Shown here in pieces: positions 4,256-56,932 of a stretch of DNA of 64,000 bases. A model generated the notes under the pieces. That model was not told the DNA's origin and made no database searches. It saw nothing but the letters and a program-made list of their open reading frames with translations. Both the position numbers and the translations under genes were made by a program. Source of the stretch: Escherichia phage vB_EcoM_PTE-Eco09; sequence record PQ306574.1; one strand, 5' to 3'. Each line of letters opens with the position of its first letter. Positions within the stretch are counted from its first letter, which is position 1.

Positions 4256-4287
4256 GAGTGTCTTTCGTAAGTGAAGGAGTTTATATT

Positions 4288-5489
4288 ATGTATTTTCTGT
4301 CATGTGAGCGAGTGGGTGATAAGATCTACGAGCGTTATATTGATGATGCTGGACAAGAACAAGAGCGTTACGTTGAATATACGCCAACTTTATTTCATCA
4401 TGCCGCGCCTGGTATGGTTACGAATTATAAAGATATCTATGGCAAGCCTTGCATTGCTAAAAAATTCCCATCTATGAACGAGGCCAACAAATGGCGTAAA
4501 AAGATGGGAGAAATGGGGCAGGAGGCACTAGGGATGGATGATTTTATCATCTCCTATCTGTCTGATACGTATAAAGGCGAGATTCGATATGACCGAAATA
4601 AAATCCGTGTAGCATGGGTTGATATCGAGGTCACTGCCCCAGAATTTCCTAAACCAGAAGAAGCGAAATATCCTATCGATGCAATTACGCATTATGATTC
4701 CGTACATGATCGTTTCTTTGTATTTGACTTGAAAGGAAAAAACGGTGAAATCTGGGAAGCAAGCAAGTCTATTCTTCGACCTGATATTGTAGAGCGCGTT
4801 GTTTATAACGTCTATGACACAGAAGATGAATTGCTGTTAGAATACATCCGATTCTTTGAGGAAAACCGACCCGTTGGTTTCACTGGCTGGAACACAGAAA
4901 CATTCGATATTCCATATATCATTAAACGTATCAGTAATAAGTTCGGAAGTAGAACCGCTAACCGTCTAAGCCCGTGCGGTAAGATTAAATCCAGAATCTC
5001 ACAGGATGATTTTGGCAACGAGCGTGAAGCATTTACGATCATGGGGATCGAAAGCCTTGATTATATTGACCTGTACAAGAAATTTAGCTTTACGACTCAA
5101 CCAACATATGCGTTAGATTATGTTGCTGAATATGAGACAGGAATCGGTAAGGTTGATTATGATGGTCCGTTAAAGAAATTGCGTGATGACAACCATCAAC
5201 TTTACATCGATTATAACATCGGCGACGTTGATCGTGTGCTGGCGATTGATAAAAAGCGTGGATTTATCGATCTTGTGTATAGTCTATGTTTCTATGCAAA
5301 GATTAAATTTAACCATGTTTATAACCCGATGAAAGTATGGGATGCTATTATCTTCGGATCTCTGAAAGCTGAGGGTAAAGTAGTACCGGAAAATAAGATA
5401 CAGCCTAAGCAGACTTATCCTGGCGCATTTGTAAAAGAACCTGTGCCGAATGCTTACCGCTGGATGATGAGTTTTGACCTTACTTCCCT
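4288..5489 (+). CDS. 43: DNA polymerase gp43, exon 1 (N-terminal/exonuclease half, ends within the SLYPS motif)
   Basis: MYFLSCERVGDKIYERYID matches the T4 gp43 N-terminus; FDIEV exo motif. The frame hits a stop 7 nt after the proposed 5' splice site. Confidence 0.9.
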
Positions 5490-6602
5490 AAACTGATATG
5501 GGGCTTTCACTGGTGACAGTGATCGAATAACCTGCTTAATTGCTGGGAAATCTCTAAGGAGACAATCAGCAGCAGTTGCATTTTGAGCTAACGTGTCTTA
5601 TAATGTATATAAATATTGATATACATTGGAGGCGCGAGATGAAAGACATTTTAAGAAAGTACGAAATACATAACGAGGAAGCATTAAACGACTACATTAA
5701 ACTGGTGTCTAATCCGTATCAGGGTGAAGAATATTCCGAGGTGCATCATATATGCCCGAAGTCAATGTTCCCTGAATATCTGTTAGATAAATGGAATCTT
5801 GTTAGGCTTAAGTTTGAAGACCACGTAGAGGCGCATCGGTTATTGTGATTAATATTCAATAACGGTGAATGCAAGAGAGCATATGCTTTCATCTCTAGAG
5901 GATCTTATGACGATAAAGTGAAGGCGTTAACCAAAGATGCATTCGCTGGAGACAATAACCCAGCCAAGCGAGAGGAAGTTAGACTGAAAATATCCGAAAA
6001 CAAGACCGGAAAAGCCAGAACCGATATGAGCGGAAAGAAGTATTTCGGGGCTGATGAGGACATTATACGAAAAGGTCTTGATTCTATGGCAGAAAAGCTA
6101 AAGAATACTGTTATCGTTAAGGATAAGGAAGGAAATCGGTTTAGAGTTAGTTGTGATGATCCTAGATATGTTTCCGGTGAGTTAGTATCATTTAATGCTG
6201 GAGAGAAGCGCGAAAATTCAGCGTCTAAACGACCGGAAGTTATGAGTAAAATAATGTCAAAACGTAATGAAACTTATGCTAAATTTGCAAGTTTCACATT
6301 TGATGAAATGGTGAATTTTCTTGTTGAAGCACATAATTCAGGAAAAGAGATCTTTGGTAAGAAGAAACCTTTTGCCAAGAATTATAGCGGATACTGTAAG
6401 AGAACCCCGTTTGATCAAAATGAGCTTAAAGATGCAGTTGTTCAACGACTATCGAAAGGGTAACGAACCGAGTAGAGTAGAATCAAGCGATTCGAAATGG
6501 CAGGATTCTCTATGAGAATGTGATATAGTCTGATCTACATGGTGACATGTAGCAGTTCGCAAGAGAACGGGCGCGGGAGTAGCGAACCGCGCTGAACATA
6601 TG
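5490..6602 (+). mobile_element. putative group I self-splicing intron in gene 43
   Basis: U at 5489 can pair with G5500 (P1: CCCU/GGGG); terminal G at 6602; P10 pairing GAUAU (5495-5499) with exon 2 GUAUC (6603-6607). Core-like elements AAUUGCUGGGAAA, AAUCAGCAG and GAUAUAGUC; GNRA hairpins. Joining the exons restores TSL-YPSIIRQVNISPETI. Confidence 0.65.
5639..6463 (+). pseudogene. intron-encoded HNH homing endonuclease with NUMOD3-like C-terminal region, interrupted by an in-frame TGA (5846-5848)
   Basis: HNH-like motif EVHHICPKS...NLVRL...HVEAH in the first 69 codons; the same frame continues after the TGA into NUMOD3-like NPAKREEVRLKISENKTGK. RBS GGAGG before ATG 5639. Confidence 0.6.
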
Positions 6603-8079
6603 GTATCCATCAATCATCCGTCAGGTTAATATTTCGCCGGAAACAATCGCCGGATCTTTTGATGCTGCACCGATGCACGAGTATATCAATAAAACTGCCC
6701 CGCGTCCGAGTGATGAGTATTCTTGCTCTCCTAACGGATGGATGTATAGAAAAGATATTCACGGTATCGTACCGATTGAGATTAAAAAGGTATTCGATCA
6801 GCGTAAGCAGTACAAAAACATGATGTTGGCATGTGATCGCAATGCTGAACTCTGTAAAGCGATTCTACACGATGAAAATCATGTTTATGGGGGAACCATT
6901 AGCTATAGCGTTGAAGTACGTCACGACTTTGATGAAGCGTTTAAATCGATGCTTTCTGAATTAAGTAAAGATGCCTTAGAGAAATTGCTGGAAGAATGTA
7001 AAGACGAGTCGATCTTGTGCAATACAAACCAGCTTTCTCGAAAAGTTTTGATCAACTCCCTTTATGGTGCGTTGGGGAATCCTAAATTCCGTTTTTATGA
7101 TCTCCGTAACGCTAGTGCGATCACCTTGTTTGGTCAGCTTGCAATTCAGTGGATTGAGCGTAAGATTAACGAATACTTAAACGAGCTTTGCGGAACAACC
7201 GATTTTGCATATGTTCGTTATTGTGATACTGACTCCGTTTATGTGCTGGTTAACAATGTTGTTGATAAGGTTGGCGGGGAAGACCGTTTCGACGATACCG
7301 AAAAACTTGTTGACTTCCTTGATAATTTCGGTAAACATCGAATGGAACCTATTATCGACAAGGGATATCGCGAGTTATGCGAGTACATGAACAACTATGA
7401 GCACTTGATGTTTATGGACCGTGAGGCAATTGCTGGTCCTCCGTTGAAATCTGCGGGTATCGGTGGATTCTGGACTGGCAAAAAGCGTTATGCTCTTAAT
7501 GTTTGGGATATGGAAGGAACGCGCTTTGCTGAACCTAAGCTAAAAATCATGGGCTTGGAAACGCAACGTAGCTCCACCCCTAAAGCATGTCAGAAATCAC
7601 TGAAAGAATGTATTCGCCGTATGTTGCAGGAAGGTGAAGAGTCATTGCAGGAATACTACGGTATTTTTGAGCAAGAATTTAGAAAACTTGATTATCTTGA
7701 GGTTGCTGCGGTATCATCTGCAAACAACCTACAGAAATACAGCGATTCAAACGGGTATCCGATTAAGGGTTGTCCGTATGCGGTTAAGAGTGTATTGTGT
7801 TATAATCGTAATGCTCGAAAATTCGGACTAGATCCAATTCGTGAGGGCGAGAAGGTTATGATTGTACCGCTGAAAGATCGAAATCCGTTTGGAGAAATCT
7901 GTTTTGGTTGGTTGTCCGGTACTCGTATTCCTCCAGAAATTGAATCAGAGGTGTTAAAGTGGTTAGACTGGCCTTTGTTGTTTAATAAGACTTTCGTCAA
8001 ACCACTGGAGAACATTACCACGGCTGCAAAGCTGCAATATGAGAAAGTTGCTTCTCTGACTGACCTGTTTGACATTTAA
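6603..8079 (+). CDS. 43: DNA polymerase gp43, exon 2 (polymerase half)
   Basis: Frame is open from 6583 and encodes YPSIIRQVNISPETIAG upstream of the first Met (6673). Contains YGALG, DTDS motifs; C-terminal SLTDLFDI resembles the clamp-binding tail. Confidence 0.9.
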
Positions 8080-18078: not shown

Positions 18079-18747
18079 ATGCTTCCAGTGGATTTAATGA
18101 TTGACTTTGAAAGTTTAGGTTATCCGCCTGATGGGGCGGTTATCAATATGGCGGCAATCGGATTTAAAGAAGATCCGCACAACCCACCTACATTTAAAGA
18201 ACTGGTTGACAATTCCTTTCTGGTAAAATTTGATATTCCTTCCCAGAAAGGTGTAAGGGTGTTTGATCATGGTGTGGTTGAATGGTGGAAGAGTACCGCC
18301 TCAGAAGGCATGAGAAAGCAATTAATCACAAATGGTACGGAAGTATCAACTAAAGAAGGTTTAGCGCGTTTTAACGCATTCTGTGAAGCCGTAGGGGTAG
18401 ATCCGGTTAAATCCGTATTGTGGTCACGCGGTAATGCGTTTGATATTCCGTTACTAGTTGATATGATCCGCCGTGCACACAATACACGAGAGACGTTCAA
18501 TCTTGAACCTGTGCGATTCTGGAATATCCGAGATGTTCGCACCGCCATTGAGCGTACATTGATGCATCGCGGGATGTGTGAGTGTCCGTTACCAATGGGT
18601 ACGCTAGATGGTTTTATCGCACATGATGCAATTCATGATTGCGCTCGCGATATTCTTATGCTAATCTATGCACAACGTTATGCTATGGGTCTGGAAGACC
18701 TACCAGAAAATCCAGATCCAAATTCAGTTAAGAAACAAAGGGGATAA
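18079..18747 (+). CDS. dexA: exonuclease A (DexA, DEDD-type 3'-5' exonuclease)
   Basis: 222 aa; IDFES, GTLDGFIAHDAIHDCARDILM, YAMGLED closely match remembered T4 DexA; adjacent to dda. Confidence 0.85.
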   Translation: MLPVDLMIDFESLGYPPDGAVINMAAIGFKEDPHNPPTFKELVDNSFLVKFDIPSQKGVRVFDHGVVEWWKSTASEGMRKQLITNGTEVSTKEGLARFNAFCEAVGVDPVKSVLWSRGNAFDIPLLVDMIRRAHNTRETFNLEPVRFWNIRDVRTAIERTLMHRGMCECPLPMGTLDGFIAHDAIHDCARDILMLIYAQRYAMGLEDLPENPDPNSVKKQRG

Positions 18748-50699: not shown

Positions 50700-50968
50700 T
50701 GAAAGTCGGTATTATTCAATTATGGACGGCTACCAGTGAAAACTACGCAGTAGCCGTAGATTATTACGGTTTACAATATCTCTATGATGAAGCGAGCGCA
50801 TCATGGCTTCCTGTGCAAGAAAATAGCGATATCTCAAGACCTGCTACTATATTCGACCGTGGCGTTGTCTTTATCGATATTGACGAGACAGTAGCAAAAC
50901 TGCGTAAGAAAGCAATCAACAAGAAAAAGGTGATGTGGGATGAAAGAATATTTGAAACTATTGCGTGA
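50699..50968 (+). CDS. hypothetical protein
   Basis: 89-aa ORF from ATG 50699; overlaps the td start. Confidence 0.4.
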   Translation: MKVGIIQLWTATSENYAVAVDYYGLQYLYDEASASWLPVQENSDISRPATIFDRGVVFIDIDETVAKLRKKAINKKKVMWDERIFETIA

Positions 50969-52160
50969 TGTTCTCGATAATGGCTGGCCTCGTGAAGATC
51001 GAACGGGGGTAGGTACGCTCTCTAAATTCGGCGCAGAGATGCGAATTGACTTAAGCAAGGGTTTCCCATTACTGACCACTAAAAAGATGGCTACAGCCTC
51101 TGTAATTGGCGAATTGCTATGGTTTATGGAGGGATCACTTGACCGCCGTCGCTTACAGGAAATTACACGCGGTAAGTTTGACGAAGAAGCCTTCGACATT
51201 TGGCGCGGCAACTGTCTTGATATGAAAGAAAAGAATCCTTTGCGATTCAATGGTTATAATGTCGGCAATATGTATGGTATGGCGTGGCGACGCAAACCGA
51301 TTCATCCACACGGTGAAATCAAAATTAAGCGCGTTAAGAGCAAATATACACATACATTTAAGCACCCGTGGGTAGAAGACTTTACGCCAACCAATGAAAC
51401 AGAAGACCGTTTATGTGCTATCTGGCGTGGTATGCGTTATGAAGAGTTTGATTATATTCTGGTAGCAGACCACTGGAAGACTCAATCTAATTTTGTTAAT
51501 GATGCATATTGCTTGTGGGGATTCCAGGAATGGGTAGATGATGGTTATTTCGGTTATCTGCTTGATAGTGATTATCTGGGTGGGGATATTATAGCACCGG
51601 ATACCACGATGTTTGTTAGTATGGACGTAGACACATCAAGCACTAAAGACGATGAAGAATATGTCTATCGCCCGAAGATTTGGGAAGACCAGTTACAAAA
51701 CGTGATCGAACAAATTAAAAACAATCCAACGGATCGCCGGATCATTATTGACTCATGGAACGTACAAGGAACACATAATGCTGTATTAGGTGTATGTCAT
51801 CCTTTCGTGCAATTCTACGTCAATGAAGGTAAACTGTCTTGTATGTGGTTTCAGCGAAGCGTAGACAGCTTTTTAGGCTTGCCCTTTAACGTCGCCAGCT
51901 ATGCGCTGTTAACTCACATCATAGCGAAAATGTGTGATCTTGAGGTAGGAGAACTGATTTTCTCTGGTGGAGATACTCACATTTACAAAAACCATTTTGA
52001 TCAAGTCATGGAACAGTTAAGCCGTGTTCCGTTTGATAAACCAACAATTGAGTTGCCGGAATTTAAATCTTTAGATGAGGTATTGACAAAGACTCCGAAA
52101 GACTTTAAAATTCACAACTATCAAAGCCATCCAGCGATCACCGCTCAAATGGCAGTATAA
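50940..52160 (+). CDS. td: thymidylate synthase with a large internal insertion
   Basis: TS motifs DRTGVGT, YGMAWRR, DRRIIIDSWN, LGVCHPFVQFYV, LSCMWFQRSVDSFLGLPFNVASYALLT; 406 aa with extra residues between WRR and DQL. Confidence 0.9.
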   Translation: MKEYLKLLRDVLDNGWPREDRTGVGTLSKFGAEMRIDLSKGFPLLTTKKMATASVIGELLWFMEGSLDRRRLQEITRGKFDEEAFDIWRGNCLDMKEKNPLRFNGYNVGNMYGMAWRRKPIHPHGEIKIKRVKSKYTHTFKHPWVEDFTPTNETEDRLCAIWRGMRYEEFDYILVADHWKTQSNFVNDAYCLWGFQEWVDDGYFGYLLDSDYLGGDIIAPDTTMFVSMDVDTSSTKDDEEYVYRPKIWEDQLQNVIEQIKNNPTDRRIIIDSWNVQGTHNAVLGVCHPFVQFYVNEGKLSCMWFQRSVDSFLGLPFNVASYALLTHIIAKMCDLEVGELIFSGGDTHIYKNHFDQVMEQLSRVPFDKPTIELPEFKSLDEVLTKTPKDFKIHNYQSHPAITAQMAV

Positions 52161-52228: not shown

Positions 52229-54472
52229 ATGATTAAAAATGTTGTTAAGTCTTCCGGTCTGACTGTTCCGTTTGAAAAAGAAAAAGTAATGAAAATTCTG
52301 GAAGCGGCAGCCGAAGGTCATAACGTTGATCCATATGAATTGTTTGATATGGTTGAACCACTTCTGACAGAAGGTATGTCTACCAATGATATCCAGAAAG
52401 TATTGATTAAGGTCGCCGCAGATAACATCACGGTAGAAACACCCGATTATCAATATGTAGCAAGTAACCTTGCAATGTTCGCGCTTCGTAAATCAGTATA
52501 CGGTCAATTCCAACCTATTGATTTTTATAGCCATATTGAGCGTAATATTGCAACCGGAAAATATGATCGCGAAATTCTGCAAAAATATTCCCGTGAAGAA
52601 GTGGAATATCTGGAGAAATTCATCGACCATAAACTTGATTTTAAAATGACCTATGCTGGTGCGATGCAGTTAAAAGAGAAATATCTTGTTCAGGATCGCA
52701 GCACTAAGAAAATCATCGAAACACCGCAATTTGCGTATATGCTGATCGGTATGTGCTTGCATCAAGAAGAGACCGAAAATCGACTTGAACATGTGATTGA
52801 TTTTTATAATGCGGTTGCGAATAAGCAAATCTCTCTGCCTACTCCGATTATGGCAGGTGTGCGTACCCCAACACGCCAATTTAGTTCGTGTGTGGTGATT
52901 GAAAGTGATGACTCATTGCAGGGTATTAATGAAACCGCAAATGCAATCATCAAGTATATTAGCAAGCGTGCTGGTATCGGTATCAACGCTGGCATGATTC
53001 GCGCGGAAGGATCTAAGATCGGGCATGGTGAAGTTCGTCATACTGGAGTTATCCCATTCTGGAAACATTTTCAGACTGCCGTTAAGTCATGCTCACAAGG
53101 CGGTATTCGTGGCGGGGCGGCGACTCTCTATTACCCAATGTGGCATTTAGAGTTTGAAAGTCTGATTGTGTTAAAGAACAATAAGGGGGTGGAAGATAAC
53201 CGCATTCGTCATCTTGATTACGGCGTACAGATTAATAACCTGATGGTAGAGCGATTCCTTAAACGGGATTACATTACTCTGTTTAGTCCAGATGTTGCAG
53301 GTGGCTTGTTGTGGGATCTATACTTCCGAGATGAGGAAGGTTTCCGCCAGCTTTACGAAAAACTGGAAAAAGATCCGAGTGTTCGTAAAACTCGTGTTAA
53401 AGCCGAAGACCTGTTTTTAGCGGTGGCAATTGAACGTTTTAACACTGGTCGAATCTACCCAACGTTCACAGACAACATGAACAATCACGGGGCGTTTATT
53501 CGTAATGTAGCACCGATTAAACAATCTAACCTGTGTTGTGAAATTGCTCTGCCAACAAAACCGATGGGTCGTGATGATTCAGAGATCAGCCTATGCACTT
53601 TGGCAGCATATGTTTTAGGTAATTTCGATATCGAAAATATGGAAGAAGTAGAACGCATTGCTATGGTTATGGTGCGTGCACTTGACAACCTGTTAGATTA
53701 TCAGGATTATCCTGTAGAACAAGCTCTGACAGCCAAAAAACGTCGCTCTCTGGGTGTTGGTGTGACTAACTTTGCATCGTATCTAGCAGATAATTTCTTC
53801 ACATATGAAGACGCTAGCGAGTTTACGCATAAAACGTTTGAACGCTTGCAATATGCTCTGATTAAGGCTAGTGTGCGACTGGCTAAAGAGAAGGGTGCTT
53901 GCGAACTGATGCACGAAACACGCTATGGTCGCGGTGAACTTCCTATCGACTGGTACAAAAAGACAGTAGATGAACTGGTTGATCCGGTGTATGAGATGGA
54001 TTGGGAAGAACTGCGCGAAGACCTGAAAAAATATGGCATTCGTAACAGTACGCTTTCGGCGCTGATGCCCTGTGAGTCATCTTCTCAGGTGTCTAACAGC
54101 ACAAACGGTATTGAACCGCCTCGCGGGATTGTATCGGTTAAAGGATCGAAAGAAGGGCAATTTAATCAGGTTATTCCGAACGTAGAGAATAATGCTGATG
54201 TTATTGACCTGCTTTGGACACTGATCAAGAAAGGTAACAAGCCCTATCTGACACTGGCAGCGATCATGCAGAAGTTTGTAGATCAGGCGATTAGTTCCAA
54301 TACATCCTATGATCCAAGCACTTATAAGACTGGTAAAGTCGATATTGCTGATGTGTTAGATGATATGTTGTTCGCTCAACATTACGGTCTGAAAACCCTG
54401 TATTATGCGAACGTTCGCGACGGTGCAGATGGTACGGAAGACGCTAGCGAGTGCTCATCTTGCAAGCTGTAA
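52229..54472 (+). CDS. nrdA: ribonucleotide reductase large subunit NrdA
   Basis: 747 aa; N-terminal ATP-cone, class I RNR core; C-terminal CSSCKL-type tail. Confidence 0.9.
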   Translation: MIKNVVKSSGLTVPFEKEKVMKILEAAAEGHNVDPYELFDMVEPLLTEGMSTNDIQKVLIKVAADNITVETPDYQYVASNLAMFALRKSVYGQFQPIDFYSHIERNIATGKYDREILQKYSREEVEYLEKFIDHKLDFKMTYAGAMQLKEKYLVQDRSTKKIIETPQFAYMLIGMCLHQEETENRLEHVIDFYNAVANKQISLPTPIMAGVRTPTRQFSSCVVIESDDSLQGINETANAIIKYISKRAGIGINAGMIRAEGSKIGHGEVRHTGVIPFWKHFQTAVKSCSQGGIRGGAATLYYPMWHLEFESLIVLKNNKGVEDNRIRHLDYGVQINNLMVERFLKRDYITLFSPDVAGGLLWDLYFRDEEGFRQLYEKLEKDPSVRKTRVKAEDLFLAVAIERFNTGRIYPTFTDNMNNHGAFIRNVAPIKQSNLCCEIALPTKPMGRDDSEISLCTLAAYVLGNFDIENMEEVERIAMVMVRALDNLLDYQDYPVEQALTAKKRRSLGVGVTNFASYLADNFFTYEDASEFTHKTFERLQYALIKASVRLAKEKGACELMHETRYGRGELPIDWYKKTVDELVDPVYEMDWEELREDLKKYGIRNSTLSALMPCESSSQVSNSTNGIEPPRGIVSVKGSKEGQFNQVIPNVENNADVIDLLWTLIKKGNKPYLTLAAIMQKFVDQAISSNTSYDPSTYKTGKVDIADVLDDMLFAQHYGLKTLYYANVRDGADGTEDASECSSCKL

Positions 54473-54480
54473 AATAAGTG

Positions 54481-54509
54481 TTGACGCGGGGAGAAATCCC
54501 CGCTATAAT
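54481..54509 (+). promoter_or_regulatory. sigma70-like early promoter with hairpin in the spacer
   Basis: TTGACG-17 nt-TATAAT; GCGGGGA-GAAA-TCCCCGC lies between -35 and -10. Confidence 0.5.
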
Positions 54510-54540
54510 ACAACCATCAAAAACAAGTGAGGATTTTATT

Positions 54541-54708
54541 ATGACCAAATTAAAATGTGTTGCTGTAGATTTTGAGCTAGCTGATAGCTTTGTTGTTGGT
54601 GATGAATATGATGCTCGACATGATGGGACTTGCTACTACGTCGAGGATGAATACGGTGTAGAATGGGCGATTCTTCCTGATGATAAATGTTTTGAGGTTG
54701 TCGGATAA
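54541..54708 (+). CDS. hypothetical small protein
   Basis: 55-aa ORF. Confidence 0.35.
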   Translation: MTKLKCVAVDFELADSFVVGDEYDARHDGTCYYVEDEYGVEWAILPDDKCFEVVG

Positions 54709-54881
54709 TGGCTACTGTATGGTTATTGATTGCAATAAGCAATTCAATGTATAATTACGGAAATATGTCAAGCATTGAGTTTGCAACAAAGCAGGATTGC
54801 GTTAAAGCTCGCGAGATTATCCGCGAAGACAATAAACGCTTTATGAATCTATATTGCGTTGAAAAACAAAAGGTGAACTAA
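54708..54881 (+). CDS. small hydrophobic-N-terminus protein (tandem paralog 1)
   Basis: 57 aa MATVWLLIAISNSMYNYGNMSSIEF...; TAATG overlap. Confidence 0.4.
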   Translation: MATVWLLIAISNSMYNYGNMSSIEFATKQDCVKAREIIREDNKRFMNLYCVEKQKVN

Positions 54882-55048
54882 TGGCTACATTATGGTTATT
54901 GCTTTCCGTTAGCGTAGGCGTATATAATAAAGGAACTGTTACCAGCGTAGAGTTTTCATCATATCAAAATTGTTTTGAAGCTGTGCAGGAATTGCAGCAG
55001 GATAGCGAAATAAACAGAAATACTAAGTTCTTTTGTGTTAAAAAGTGA
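54881..55048 (+). CDS. small hydrophobic-N-terminus protein (tandem paralog 2)
   Basis: 55 aa MATLWLLLSVSVGVYNKGTVTSVEF...; similar to the preceding ORF. Confidence 0.4.
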   Translation: MATLWLLLSVSVGVYNKGTVTSVEFSSYQNCFEAVQELQQDSEINRNTKFFCVKK

Positions 55049-55057
55049 TAGTGAGGT

Positions 55058-55117
55058 GAATTAATCCTTCTTCTGGATACCTGATAAATAATGGTATACA
55101 GAAAAGAGGATTAATTC
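55058..55117 (+). promoter_or_regulatory. RBS-sequestering inverted repeat with late-promoter-like element upstream of the mobE-like gene
   Basis: Perfect 11-bp inverted repeat GAATTAATCCT (55058-55068) / AGGATTAATTC (55107-55117); the 3' arm covers the RBS; loop contains GATAAATAAT. Confidence 0.55.
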
Positions 55118-55765
55118 ATGAACTTACAAAAACTACATGACGCAATCATAGAAAAAGCAAAGACGAGAGGAACCGTTGAAGGGTATAAGGAAACACATCA
55201 TATTTTACCGCGATCTATGGGTGGCGGTGATGAAGTTGATAACCTGATTGAGTTGACAGCAAAAGAACATTTCGTGATTCATCATCTGCTAGCAAAAATT
55301 CATGGTGGACCTATGGCACAAGCATTTGGTATGATGTGTTTAGCAAAAAATGCGAAGACCAATAAAAGAGATTATATTGTTTCGTCTAGGGTATATGAAC
55401 AAGCTAGGGTACTTATCTCTGAACAAAGAAAGGGCAAACCTATGAAAGAAGAAACGCGAAGAAAGATTAGCGAATCTTCGAAAGGTGTGTTGAAATCAGA
55501 AGAGACAAAAGCTAAAATGCGTAAGCCAAAAACAAAGGAGCACGCGTTAAACATTTCAAAAGCTAGAATGGGCAGTAAAAATCCTATGTTTGGGAAACCA
55601 TCGCCAACTAAAGGAATACCACATAGTGAGGAAATGAGAAAGCTGATTGCACAAAGGACAAAGGAAGCAACAATGGCAGATCCTTGTCCGCATTGCGGTA
55701 AAATTACCAATAAAGGCAATTCTCTACGATGGCACTTTGATAACTGTAAAATGAGGAATATGTGA
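55118..55765 (+). CDS. mobE: HNH homing endonuclease with NUMOD3-like repeats (MobE-like)
   Basis: HNH motif HHILPRSMGGGDEVDNLIELTAKEHFVIHH; repeated ...R.KIS.S.KG... NUMOD3-like units; located between nrdA and nrdB like T4 mobE. Confidence 0.75.
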   Translation: MNLQKLHDAIIEKAKTRGTVEGYKETHHILPRSMGGGDEVDNLIELTAKEHFVIHHLLAKIHGGPMAQAFGMMCLAKNAKTNKRDYIVSSRVYEQARVLISEQRKGKPMKEETRRKISESSKGVLKSEETKAKMRKPKTKEHALNISKARMGSKNPMFGKPSPTKGIPHSEEMRKLIAQRTKEATMADPCPHCGKITNKGNSLRWHFDNCKMRNM

Positions 55766-56932
55766 ATGGGAAATACGGTATTTAATCGTGAACACGTTGA
55801 TATTATGAATGAACCGATGTTTCTGGGCAGCGGTTTAGGTATCGCTCGTTATGACATTCAGCGTCATCAAGTATTTGAAGAATTAATTGAAAAATCTCTG
55901 TCATTTTTTTGGCGCCCCGAAGAAATTTCACTTGCAACCGACCGCATTCAATATCTTAATATGGGTGACGTTGAAAAGCGTTTCTTTACTGAAAACTTGA
56001 AGTATCAGACATTACTTGATTCTATTCAAGGTCGCGCACCGTCCGCAGCATTTGGTCCAATTGTATCTGATCCAACTCTCGATACATGGTTGCAAACATG
56101 GACATTCAGCGAAACGATTCATAGCCGAAGCTATACACACATTATGCGTAACTGTTTCATTGATCCGGCTAGTGAGTTCGACCAGATCATCGATAACCCT
56201 GCTATCATGAAGCGAGCGGAATCTATCGGGAAATATTATGATGATGTTCTTTATTGGATTCGTAAGTATGAGAATGCAAAAGAAGATCTCCGCTATTGGG
56301 AAGAACGAGACGACCAGACAGCATTAGATGATGCAAGAAGATTTTTTGAAGATACAAAACGAGATCTGATGGCTTCGATTTATCTGTGTGCACACTGCGT
56401 AAATGCACTGGAAGCAATCCGTTTTTATGTGTCCTTTGCATGTACTTTCAGCTTTGCCGAACGTGGTTTACTGGAAGGTAACGCGAAGATCATGAAATTT
56501 ATTGCGCGTGATGAACAACTTCACTTAAAAGGAACACAATACATTATTCGTCAATGGCAAACGGGGGTTGATGGTGATGAGTGGAAACAGATTGCGGAAG
56601 AACTTGAAGGCGAAGCAACGAAAATCTTTCTGGATGTTGTCGAGCAAGAAAAAGAATGGGTAGACCACCTATTCGCAATGGGGGCAATTCCTAACCTGTC
56701 ACCGGAAATTCTGAAAACCTATGTAGAATACCTGGCAGATTCCCGTATGCGTGCTGCCGGACTGAAAAGCCCGTTTAGTGTTCGTCGTCATCCGTTACCG
56801 TGGATGCGTAAATGGTTGAACTCTGACGAAGTACAGAATGCAGCGCAGGAAGTAGAGATTATGTATCTGGTATCTCAGGTTAATACCGATTTAACAGACG
56901 ACGACTACAACCGATTCGGGAAATATCTATGA
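55766..56932 (+). CDS. nrdB: ribonucleotide reductase small subunit NrdB (uninterrupted)
   Basis: 388 aa; di-iron ligand regions (SETIHSRSYTHI, EAIRFYVSF, DEQLHLKG); continuous ORF. Confidence 0.85.
   Translation: MGNTVFNREHVDIMNEPMFLGSGLGIARYDIQRHQVFEELIEKSLSFFWRPEEISLATDRIQYLNMGDVEKRFFTENLKYQTLLDSIQGRAPSAAFGPIVSDPTLDTWLQTWTFSETIHSRSYTHIMRNCFIDPASEFDQIIDNPAIMKRAESIGKYYDDVLYWIRKYENAKEDLRYWEERDDQTALDDARRFFEDTKRDLMASIYLCAHCVNALEAIRFYVSFACTFSFAERGLLEGNAKIMKFIARDEQLHLKGTQYIIRQWQTGVDGDEWKQIAEELEGEATKIFLDVVEQEKEWVDHLFAMGAIPNLSPEILKTYVEYLADSRMRAAGLKSPFSVRRHPLPWMRKWLNSDEVQNAAQEVEIMYLVSQVNTDLTDDDYNRFGKYL

Follow-up and report, generated by a model that had tools for sequence, protein, structure and literature searches.

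How did a homing endonuclease gene come to lie at the very start of nrdB in a T4-like phage, and how might it time its own expression from there? The question is raised by a 64,000-nt stretch of DNA from Escherichia phage vB_EcoM_PTE-Eco09 (record PQ306574.1), the whole of which we call the window, where an open reading frame (ORF) on the + strand runs directly up to nrdB behind a leader that contains a perfect inverted repeat. The phage is an RB49/JSE-type T4-like coliphage of the genus Krischvirus, and the 2-kb surroundings of the gene match 58 phage records at 90-99% identity. We consider it probable that the ORF and its leader form a free-standing MobE-family cassette at the nrdB start codon, equipped with its own timing device of a hairpin and a late promoter, and homing into nrdB. 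The homology, the junctions, the co-conversion tract, the predicted structure with its retention, and the motif with its placement all come from the present analysis. A literature search found no published analysis of this leader; two mob-like HNH genes have been listed for the related phage JSE (PMC2993671).

A MobE-family gene directly ahead of nrdB

55118-55765, + strand: gene for a MobE-family HNH/NUMOD3 homing endonuclease of 215 amino acids, ATG start, TGA stop (ORF map, homology, and the ratio of nonsynonymous to synonymous polymorphism, pN/pS)

The original prediction, which was made from the nucleotide letters without database searches, had named an intact, MobE-like HNH/NUMOD3 ORF, and homology searches bore this out. 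The 215-amino-acid product matched Pfam NUMOD3, a DNA-binding repeat, in two stretches (E=2.7e-9, 37.2 bits vs a cut-off of 20.4) and PHROG 655, annotated as homing endonuclease, at E=1.8e-55, while the Pfam HNH match was sub-threshold (E=0.016, 15.8 bits vs a cut-off of 21.4). When 50,697 phage records were searched by tblastn, T4 mobE was matched over its full length by query residues 1-214 (48.7% identity, E=5e-64), and a MAFFT alignment with the MobE proteins of T4 and LF82-1 was collinear at 51-52% identity. The motif HH-x13-N-x8-H-x3-HH (residues 27-56) is invariant relative to T4 MobE, as is the C-terminal Cys/His motif CPHCGK..NKGN.LRWH.D.C in the alignment with T4 and LF82-1 MobE. A sequence search of the PDB returned weak matches to HNH domains (E=0.02-0.05). 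Among the alleles of the window, JSE, and phiS, pN/pS is 0.05-0.10, which indicates that the protein is under purifying selection. By these sequence comparisons, the ORF is judged a genuine MobE-family member.

The gene is free-standing between nrdA and nrdB, and the same position abutting nrdB is found in T4, LF82-1, UPWr_E2, and the metagenomic contig P0004. No Rfam family reached its gathering score anywhere in the window, and the interval 54400-56000 gave only noise at E<1; the leader is therefore not a described RNA family, and the gene does not lie in a recognised intron.

The leader is predicted to fold over the ribosome-binding site

55051-55127, + strand: RNA stem-loop of 77 nt over the Shine-Dalgarno (SD) sequence and AUG of the endonuclease gene (predicted fold)
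55106-55110, + strand: SD sequence GAGGA of the endonuclease gene, within the 3' arm of the hairpin, 7 nt ahead of the ATG (sequence, fold)

The repeat in the leader consists of TGAATTAATCCT at 55057-55068 and AGGATTAATTCA at 55107-55118, which are 100% complementary over 12 bp with 38 nt between the arms. Described at first as a perfect 11-bp repeat, it has kept its perfection and gained one base pair. It is the sole perfect spaced inverted repeat of this size in the window, for which our search returned two spaced inverted repeats of any kind.

In the predicted RNA fold, the repeat forms the core of a main helix of 14 contiguous pairs, two of them G-U (55056-69/55106-19), set upon an outer helix of 5 bp (55051-55/55123-27). 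Two inner helices of 5 bp (55071-75/55099-103) and 4 bp (55078-81/55093-96) lead to an apical loop of 11 nt (55082-55092, UGAUAAAUAAU). The folding free energy was -33.1 kcal/mol for 55040-55135 (z=-8.2; none of 200 shuffled sequences was as stable) and -30.3 kcal/mol for 55051-55127 (z=-6.9). The uninterrupted site of RB49 had no structure (z=+0.5).

The SD GAGGA is fully paired in this fold, its partner being an anti-SD (CCUU) at 55066-55069; of the AUG, the first two bases are paired, whereas the G is part of a 3-nt bulge. The earlier placement of both the ribosome-binding site (RBS) and the start codon in the 3' arm thus holds for the whole of the SD and for two bases of the codon. The computed probability that the SD is unpaired was 0.02 in a long RNA vs 0.65-0.71 in an RNA beginning at 55096 or 55097. 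A hairpin that pairs the SD and AUG on long transcripts is accordingly a prediction of the folding model, and one that is exceptional for the window.

A late-promoter-like motif occupies the apical loop

55083-55090, + strand: late-promoter-like motif GATAAATA, identical to TATAAATA at 7 of 8 positions, all but -13 (motif match)

The motif had been recognised as close to the late-promoter consensus and assigned to a 38-nt loop. The likeness to the consensus was correct and the 38 nt do separate the arms, but they are themselves structured, and GATAAATA sits exactly in the 11-nt apical loop, ending 27 nt ahead of the endonuclease ATG. By the T4 convention, in which the motif spans -13 to -6, transcription from it is predicted to start at about 55096, past all of the 5' strands that build the structure.

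The placement of related motifs was surveyed in the window and over 50 kb of JSE. The window is depleted of ATAAATA, with 7 sites observed vs 22.3 +/- 4.4 expected, and each of the seven is either TATAAATA or a AATAAATA/GATAAATA variant, mostly 21-42 nt ahead of a start codon. The six copies other than that in the leader stand upstream of genes; AATAAATA, for example, lies 28 nt before the ATG of a gene 34-like gene, and TATAAATA precedes gene 36. Those NATAAATA motifs of JSE that are close upstream of gene starts stand at 21-34 nt in nearly all cases, a range that includes the 27-nt spacing seen here. The major capsid gene (gene 23) of JSE is preceded by AATAAATA, and the only NATAAATA before its late gene 4 is GATAAATA itself, 31 nt away and in the loop of a hairpin whose 3' arm holds the SD. 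JSE has another, related endonuclease gene, encoded on its late strand; GATAAATA lies 34 nt ahead of this gene without any hairpin (z=-0.3), as would be expected if the hairpin only silences early read-through RNA. The leader motif deviates at -13, where conservation of T is poor in RB49 (PMC1524935) and where A is found in 9 of 50 T4 late promoters (PMC2988020).

Another site in the window places a consensus late-promoter motif in a stem-loop. At 2236-2255, GGGGAG-TATAAATA-CTCCCC, 39 nt before the ATG of gene 44 (clamp loader), has the motif as the loop of a 6-bp G+C-rich stem.

The cassette is inserted exactly at the nrdB start codon

55066-55777, + strand: 712-bp insertion relative to RB49-type genomes, replacing 4 nt (GAGC) (alignments)
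55053-55065, + strand: orphaned ancestral nrdB initiation region, GAGGTGAATTAAT (alignments)
55753-55757, + strand: replacement nrdB SD GAGGA, inside the 3' end of the endonuclease ORF, 8 nt ahead of the nrdB ATG (sequence)
55766-56932, + strand: nrdB, its start rebuilt by the cassette (MGNT-VFN vs MS-VFN)
55786-55898, + strand: co-conversion tract in nrdB (fixed differences between carriers and non-carriers)

The endonuclease gene is present in 7 of the 58 Krischvirus records, which represent six distinct phages, and about 51 of the 58 are without it. Comparison of the two classes placed the insertion exactly at the nrdB start codon. Empty sites (RB49, FL04, GEC-3S, PHB13, KFS-EC, and JK32) read TAGTGAGGTGAATTAATGAGCGTATTTAA, comprising the nrdB SD, a spacer, and the ATG, with GAGGTGAATTAAT followed by G giving the nrdB ATG. 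The carriers (the window, JSE, and phiS) read TAGTGAGGTGAATTAAT up to the left junction, then CCTTCTT, the ORF, and GAGGAATATGTGAATGGGAAATACG up to the right junction, and GTATTTAA beyond it. The inserted DNA comprises the leader and the endonuclease ORF together with an SD, an ATG, and three codons that are new to nrdB, and the endonuclease TGA directly abuts the nrdB ATG at 55766. No stable structure was predicted around the replacement nrdB SD (z=+0.8). The displaced nrdB SD and spacer now supply 9 of the 12 nt of the 5' arm of the repeat, together with part of the outer helix.

The fixed differences between carriers and non-carriers are confined to one side of the insert. All 15 of them over about 5 kb fall within 55786-55898, and four positions (55831, 55834, 55837, and 55849) are the only ones that split carriers from non-carriers across all nine aligned genomes. 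The full tract occurs only in insert-bearing records, and mosaic tracts were found in 10 records without the insert. The tract agrees with the behaviour of T4 MobE, for which T4 x T2 crosses mapped the recombination point to the first 189 nt of nrdB (PMC2790892), and it is probably, to judge from these alignments, the region in which the target site has diverged. We also considered the empty site as a simple deletion derivative of the occupied one; this was ruled out, as neither the junctions (GAGC vs 712 bp) nor the nrdB tract fit such an origin.

A more detailed history can be proposed as a possible, though doubtful, joint account of the hairpin and the tract. The hairpin would be a chimera of parasite and host, in which the cassette gives the anti-SD (CCUU), the promoter motif, and the SD, and the orphaned nrdB region of the recipient contributes the 9 outer nt of the perfect arm, along with most of the bases that pair with the SD-AUG spacer and first codons. 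It may have arisen by either of two routes. The cassette may have entered by recombination where its 5' arm and the nrdB initiation region share 8-9 nt of microhomology ((T)GAATTAAT), or the endonuclease spacer and codon 3, which is Leu here and Tyr in most relatives, may have been retuned later to pair with the host sequence. In the same account, the enzyme may recognise or cleave nrdB at 55831-55849 (GSGLGIAR codons), and the mosaic tracts in the ten cassette-free genomes may be scars of repair that left the cassette uncopied.

The leader is retained among carriers and its design recurs in relatives

A hairpin is kept in every carrier examined. The perfect stem is a minority allele found in the window and JSE; phiS, FL15, and AV108 have T in place of A at the equivalent of 55113, which introduces one U-U mismatch, and identical scores suggest the same for SSG23 and SFHK24. 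The mismatch alleles still fold at -29 to -30 kcal/mol (z -4.4 to -5.9). Over the 51 nt of leader derived from the insert, the window and phiS differ by one substitution vs about nine expected from the synonymous divergence of 0.18 in the adjacent ORF, which indicates strong constraint on the leader, and the apical loop is invariant in all carriers despite that divergence.

In phiS, FL15, and AV108, the same 55113 A to T change removes an in-frame TAA and thereby extends the ORF in the 5' direction to an ATG at 55091, which lacks an SD. The FL15 annotation uses this upstream ATG, for 224 amino acids vs 215, a start that is probably an annotation artefact.

More distant comparisons came from two metagenomic relatives in a large protein database, P0004 and P0002, whose endonucleases are 53% identical to that of the window and whose genes also lie between nrdA and nrdB and abut nrdB. 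Their leaders are homologous to the window leader, with C(C/A)TTCTT.TG.A..CCTGATA in common, and are predicted to form hairpins (z=-5.9 and z=-5.7) in which the 3' arm contains the SD and AUG and the loop displays a perfect TATAAATA. Between SD and AUG, the three leaders have spacers of unrelated sequence (ATTAATTC in the window, AAGGTTT in P0004, ACTCCATA in P0002), and 5' of the promoter motif each leader has the complement of its own spacer. The 5' arms of P0004 and P0002 are not nrdB sequence. The recurrence of the design in these relatives argues that the device belongs to the cassette and is maintained. A scan of IMG/VR yielded distant relatives only, at 45% identity or below; some of them (loci L031, L036, and L008) pair a hairpin with (T/C/G)ATAAATA but are too distant for leader alignment. 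The T4-type mobE loci (T4, LF82-1, UPWr_E2, and locus L029) have neither leader nor structure and are for that reason of no use for covariation. The metagenomic T4-like contig L051, which has a 53%-identical relative, carries a SegE-type GIY-YIG gene at 4479-4916, two genes past nrdB and after a glutaredoxin gene.

These comparisons bear on whether the inverted repeat might be a functionless by-product of the junction, produced by the near-palindrome AATTAAT that occurs in both the old nrdB initiation region and that of the endonuclease gene. The host origin of 9 of the 12 nt of the 5' arm and the self-complementarity of AATTAATT are what such an accident would leave. The structure, however, comprises 28 bp, including helices wholly internal to the insert, and none of the 200 shuffles matched its stability; the leader evolves about nine times more slowly than synonymous sites; and the same architecture is found in relatives whose 5' arms do not come from nrdB. 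We regard an accidental origin without function as highly improbable.

Transcription is predicted to cross the cassette

52229-54472, + strand: nrdA
54478/54541-54708, 54708-54881, and 54881-55048, + strand: three small ORFs between nrdA and the endonuclease gene (ORF map, PHROG)
54481-54509, + strand: strong early promoter-like site of sigma-70 type, TTGACG-17-TATAAT, just past nrdA (11 of 12 consensus match)

The + strand gene order is td, nrdA, the three small ORFs, the endonuclease ORF, and nrdB. That the gene occupies the nrdA-nrdB spacer as in T4 therefore needed qualification: it is the same kind of gene directly 5' of nrdB, but the small ORFs separate it from nrdA, and it starts 646 nt past the nrdA stop. 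The second and third small ORFs (54708-54881 and 54881-55048) are tandem paralogs of PHROG 5579, with no function assigned.

The endonuclease gene is on the same strand as nrdA and nrdB, within a unit that sequence-level evidence predicts to be read through. The site equivalent to 54481-54509 carries a promoter annotation in phage GEC-3S, and as judged from its consensus match it would be one source of early RNA that reads through the small ORFs and the endonuclease gene into nrdB. Within 54300-56000, the + strand showed no terminator-like site. With a promoter-like site behind nrdA and no terminator ahead of nrdB, nrdB would rely on RNA that crosses the cassette, and early silencing of the endonuclease is then to be expected.

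The setting also invites the view that the stem-loop serves nrdB or the operon RNA, through processing, stability, or a partial barrier to transcription that sets nrdB dosage, with RBS occlusion as a side effect. T4 mobE does have a functional weak terminator 27 nt past its AUG (PMC2790892), and the insertion displaced the nrdB initiation region, so that nrdB expression needed rebuilding. We nevertheless find such a role quite improbable for this stem: there is no U-tract 3' of it, and no terminator-like site on the + strand, it covers exactly the SD and AUG in three divergent leaders, and it matches no Rfam family. As an intrinsic terminator or attenuator the stem was ruled out on the same two absences, of a U-tract after it and of a terminator-like site, and the 5' coding region of the endonuclease gene likewise lacks a hairpin with a U-tract.

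Several other features of the interval were recorded. A second sigma-70-like site, TTGAAA-17-TAAAAT (10 of 12), lies at 55490-55518 within the endonuclease ORF; were it genuine, nrdB would have an embedded promoter of the kind described for several T4 seg and mob genes. Matches of this type are not enriched regionally, with 8 found vs 5.4 expected. In the phages Delraymugoa (locus L038, 527-1366) and Aragogtheria, a DNA methyltransferase gene is inserted directly after nrdA, which marks the nrdA-nrdB interval as an insertion hotspot in Krischvirus. The small ORFs 54708-54881 and 54881-55048 are both deleted in JSE, FL15, and AV108, where the endonuclease leader directly follows the first small ORF with its junction sequence, TAGTGAGGTGAATTAAT, unchanged. 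Further upstream, the thymidylate synthase ORF (50940-52160) encodes 406 amino acids in which two Pfam stretches are split by an in-frame insertion of about 140 amino acids, the junctions of which are not intein-like by eye.

A model for timed expression and homing

The above considerations support the regulatory reading computationally, and from strong analogy and conservation of the design we infer promoter activity, the timing of translation, and cleavage with its site. Early in infection, RNA from promoters after and before nrdA would read through the cassette. On such long RNA, the leader would fold into a stem-loop of about -30 kcal/mol in which the endonuclease SD and the first two bases of the AUG pair with the anti-SD CCUU and with the displaced nrdB initiation region. 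With SD and AUG paired, the endonuclease would go untranslated, and nrdB would be translated from the new, unstructured SD in the 3' end of the cassette. Late in infection, gp55-RNA polymerase would start near 55096 at the GATAAATA of the apical loop, and the resulting RNA, having none of the 5' strands, would leave the SD free for endonuclease synthesis. By analogy with T4 MobE, the enzyme would then cut the cassette-free nrdB of co-infecting phages within the first 130-160 nt or so, and repair would copy the cassette along with about 130 nt of flanking nrdB.

Several points count against this model. The GATAAATA motif has a non-consensus G at -13 and, set beside the TATAAATA of its relatives, resembles a 2-nt deletion derivative, so that the candidate promoter could be weak or dead; on motif evidence, its activity is the weakest link in the regulatory reading. 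The T at 55113 that is carried by the majority allele weakens the stem uncompensated, and no compensatory stem changes were found among the Krischvirus alleles. The stems of the three homologous leaders are in different registers, so that covariation cannot be counted column by column and it is the architecture that is conserved instead. A ribosome terminating at the stop of the upstream ORF (55046-55048) would open the outer stem, although the partner of the SD at 55066-55069 probably lies beyond the footprint of a ribosome at that stop. Finally, T4 mobE, the closest characterised homologue, is regulated differently (PMC2790892).

In a rival reading, the hairpin would silence the endonuclease on all transcripts and GATAAATA would be inactive; a trickle of protein would be made when the stem breathes or by way of translational coupling with the upstream ORF, in a domesticated state of low toxicity. 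In its favour are the non-consensus, deletion-like motif, the upstream stop codon 3 nt before the base of the stem, and the fact that T4 mobE functions without a promoter of its own (PMC2790892). Yet in JSE GATAAATA precedes late gene 4 at a typical distance, and elsewhere there is strong avoidance of the motif; no carrier differs in the loop, although the ORF has a synonymous divergence of 0.18, and the relatives have a perfect TATAAATA in the same loop. We therefore consider constitutive silencing unlikely, and retain the model of early silencing and late expression.

Comparison with characterised systems

The likeness to T4 mobE that had been proposed for this gene holds for identity and position, whereas the regulatory analogy belongs to mobE of phage Aeh1 and to I-TevI. 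With T4 MobE, the window protein shares full-length homology of about 49-52%, the same layout of HNH, NUMOD3, and C-terminal Cys/His motifs, a gene end at or abutting the nrdB start, and a recombination footprint in 5' nrdB. T4 mobE begins at the nrdA stop codon, lacks its own promoter, and is co-transcribed with nrdA across a weak internal terminator (PMC2790892), which lies about 27 nt past the AUG; it has no leader and no RBS hairpin (z=+0.8). The window gene, by contrast, is set off from nrdA by three small ORFs, has its own leader of about 51-52 nt with a stem-loop and late-promoter motif, and has no internal terminator.

The mobE gene of Aeh1 has a late promoter and an RBS-sequestering hairpin (Gibb & Edgell 2007, 2009, summarised in PMC2988022), and the late consensus of that phage is CTAAATA (PMC1524935). 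By its described design it resembles the window gene as an HNH mob-type gene in an early ribonucleotide reductase unit, with its RBS sequestered on long RNA and a late RNA that lacks the 5' arm; it differs in being inserted inside nrdA, which it splits. The same arrangement is established for I-TevI, I-TevII, I-TevIII, segB, and Aeh1 mobE (PMC2988022, section 12): early RNA hides the RBS in a structure, and a late promoter within that structure produces RNA that can be translated. In the I-Tev genes and segB, the SD is sequestered on early and middle RNA, and a late (or middle) promoter directly upstream yields the shorter, translatable RNA (the scheme of Gott et al. 1988, PMC2988022). Unlike the window gene, these are intron-encoded (the I-Tev genes) and/or of the GIY-YIG type, and I-TevI is in addition an autorepressor that binds an operator over its late promoter.

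Operator autorepression of the I-TevI kind was examined for the window leader and set aside as too weak, since the best similarity between leader and nrdB was 16 of 20 positions, a score that 3 of 200 shuffles also reached. This match joins 55068-55087 of the leader (TTCTTCTGGATACCTGATAA, overlapping the promoter motif) to the reverse complement of nrdB 55907-55926 (FFWRPEE codons), at the edge of the co-conversion tract, where it could represent an operator-like copy of the target.

A hairpin of the same design precedes gene 4 itself in JSE (18395-18470 of locus L044, minus strand), and in the gene 4/53 intergenic region of that phage divergent late promoters form the inverted repeat ATAAATA...TATTTAT. 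In phage MIZ3 (locus L045, 420-1196), a 40%-identical MobE-family gene lies exactly at the start codon of gene 4 (head completion) and re-uses the GATAAATA, hairpin, SD, and ATG of gene 4 (z=-6.0). Both cases resemble the window leader in having GATAAATA in a hairpin loop and the SD in the 3' arm, and the MIZ3 gene is also placed at a host start codon. The difference is that the MIZ3 gene takes over the device of its host gene, whereas the window cassette carries most of its device and only the outer 5' arm is host sequence.

Within the window, the parallel that had been drawn with gene 43 was upheld. This gene (DNA polymerase) is split into 4258-5496 and 6673-8079 by an intervening sequence of about 1.18 kb, the HNH gene of which (PHROG 12434) is fragmented into the ORFs 5576/5653-5848 and 5918-6463. 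A GGAGG SD is paired in a hairpin that also contains TATAAATA, at 5608 (z=-2.5). No group I intron was detected in the intervening sequence at the Rfam gathering score. The split gene and broken HNH gene fit the gene 43 intron with a truncated endonuclease gene reported for JSE (PMC2993671).

Significance

The regulatory scheme is itself already known from I-TevI and Aeh1 mobE; the window gene is another instance of it, and the understanding of how such elements work is unchanged. Mildly unexpected are two aspects only: the outer arm of the hairpin is the displaced initiation region of the host nrdB, and one family has two regulatory solutions at one locus. Directly 5' of nrdB, the promoter-less, terminator-attenuated mobE of T4 coexists with the hairpin and candidate late promoter of the JSE-type phages and two metagenomic relatives, and in the latter solution the leader appears to belong to the mobile cassette. 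Homing endonucleases under temporal translational control form a small set, to which the locus contributes a clearly bounded natural case; it offers exact junctions, a co-conversion tract, many empty-site relatives, and several alleles. Phages of the JSE/RB49 type are used in phage-therapy cocktails, and the cassette accounts for part of the mosaicism around nrdB in this group and for the differing ORF-start annotations between genomes.

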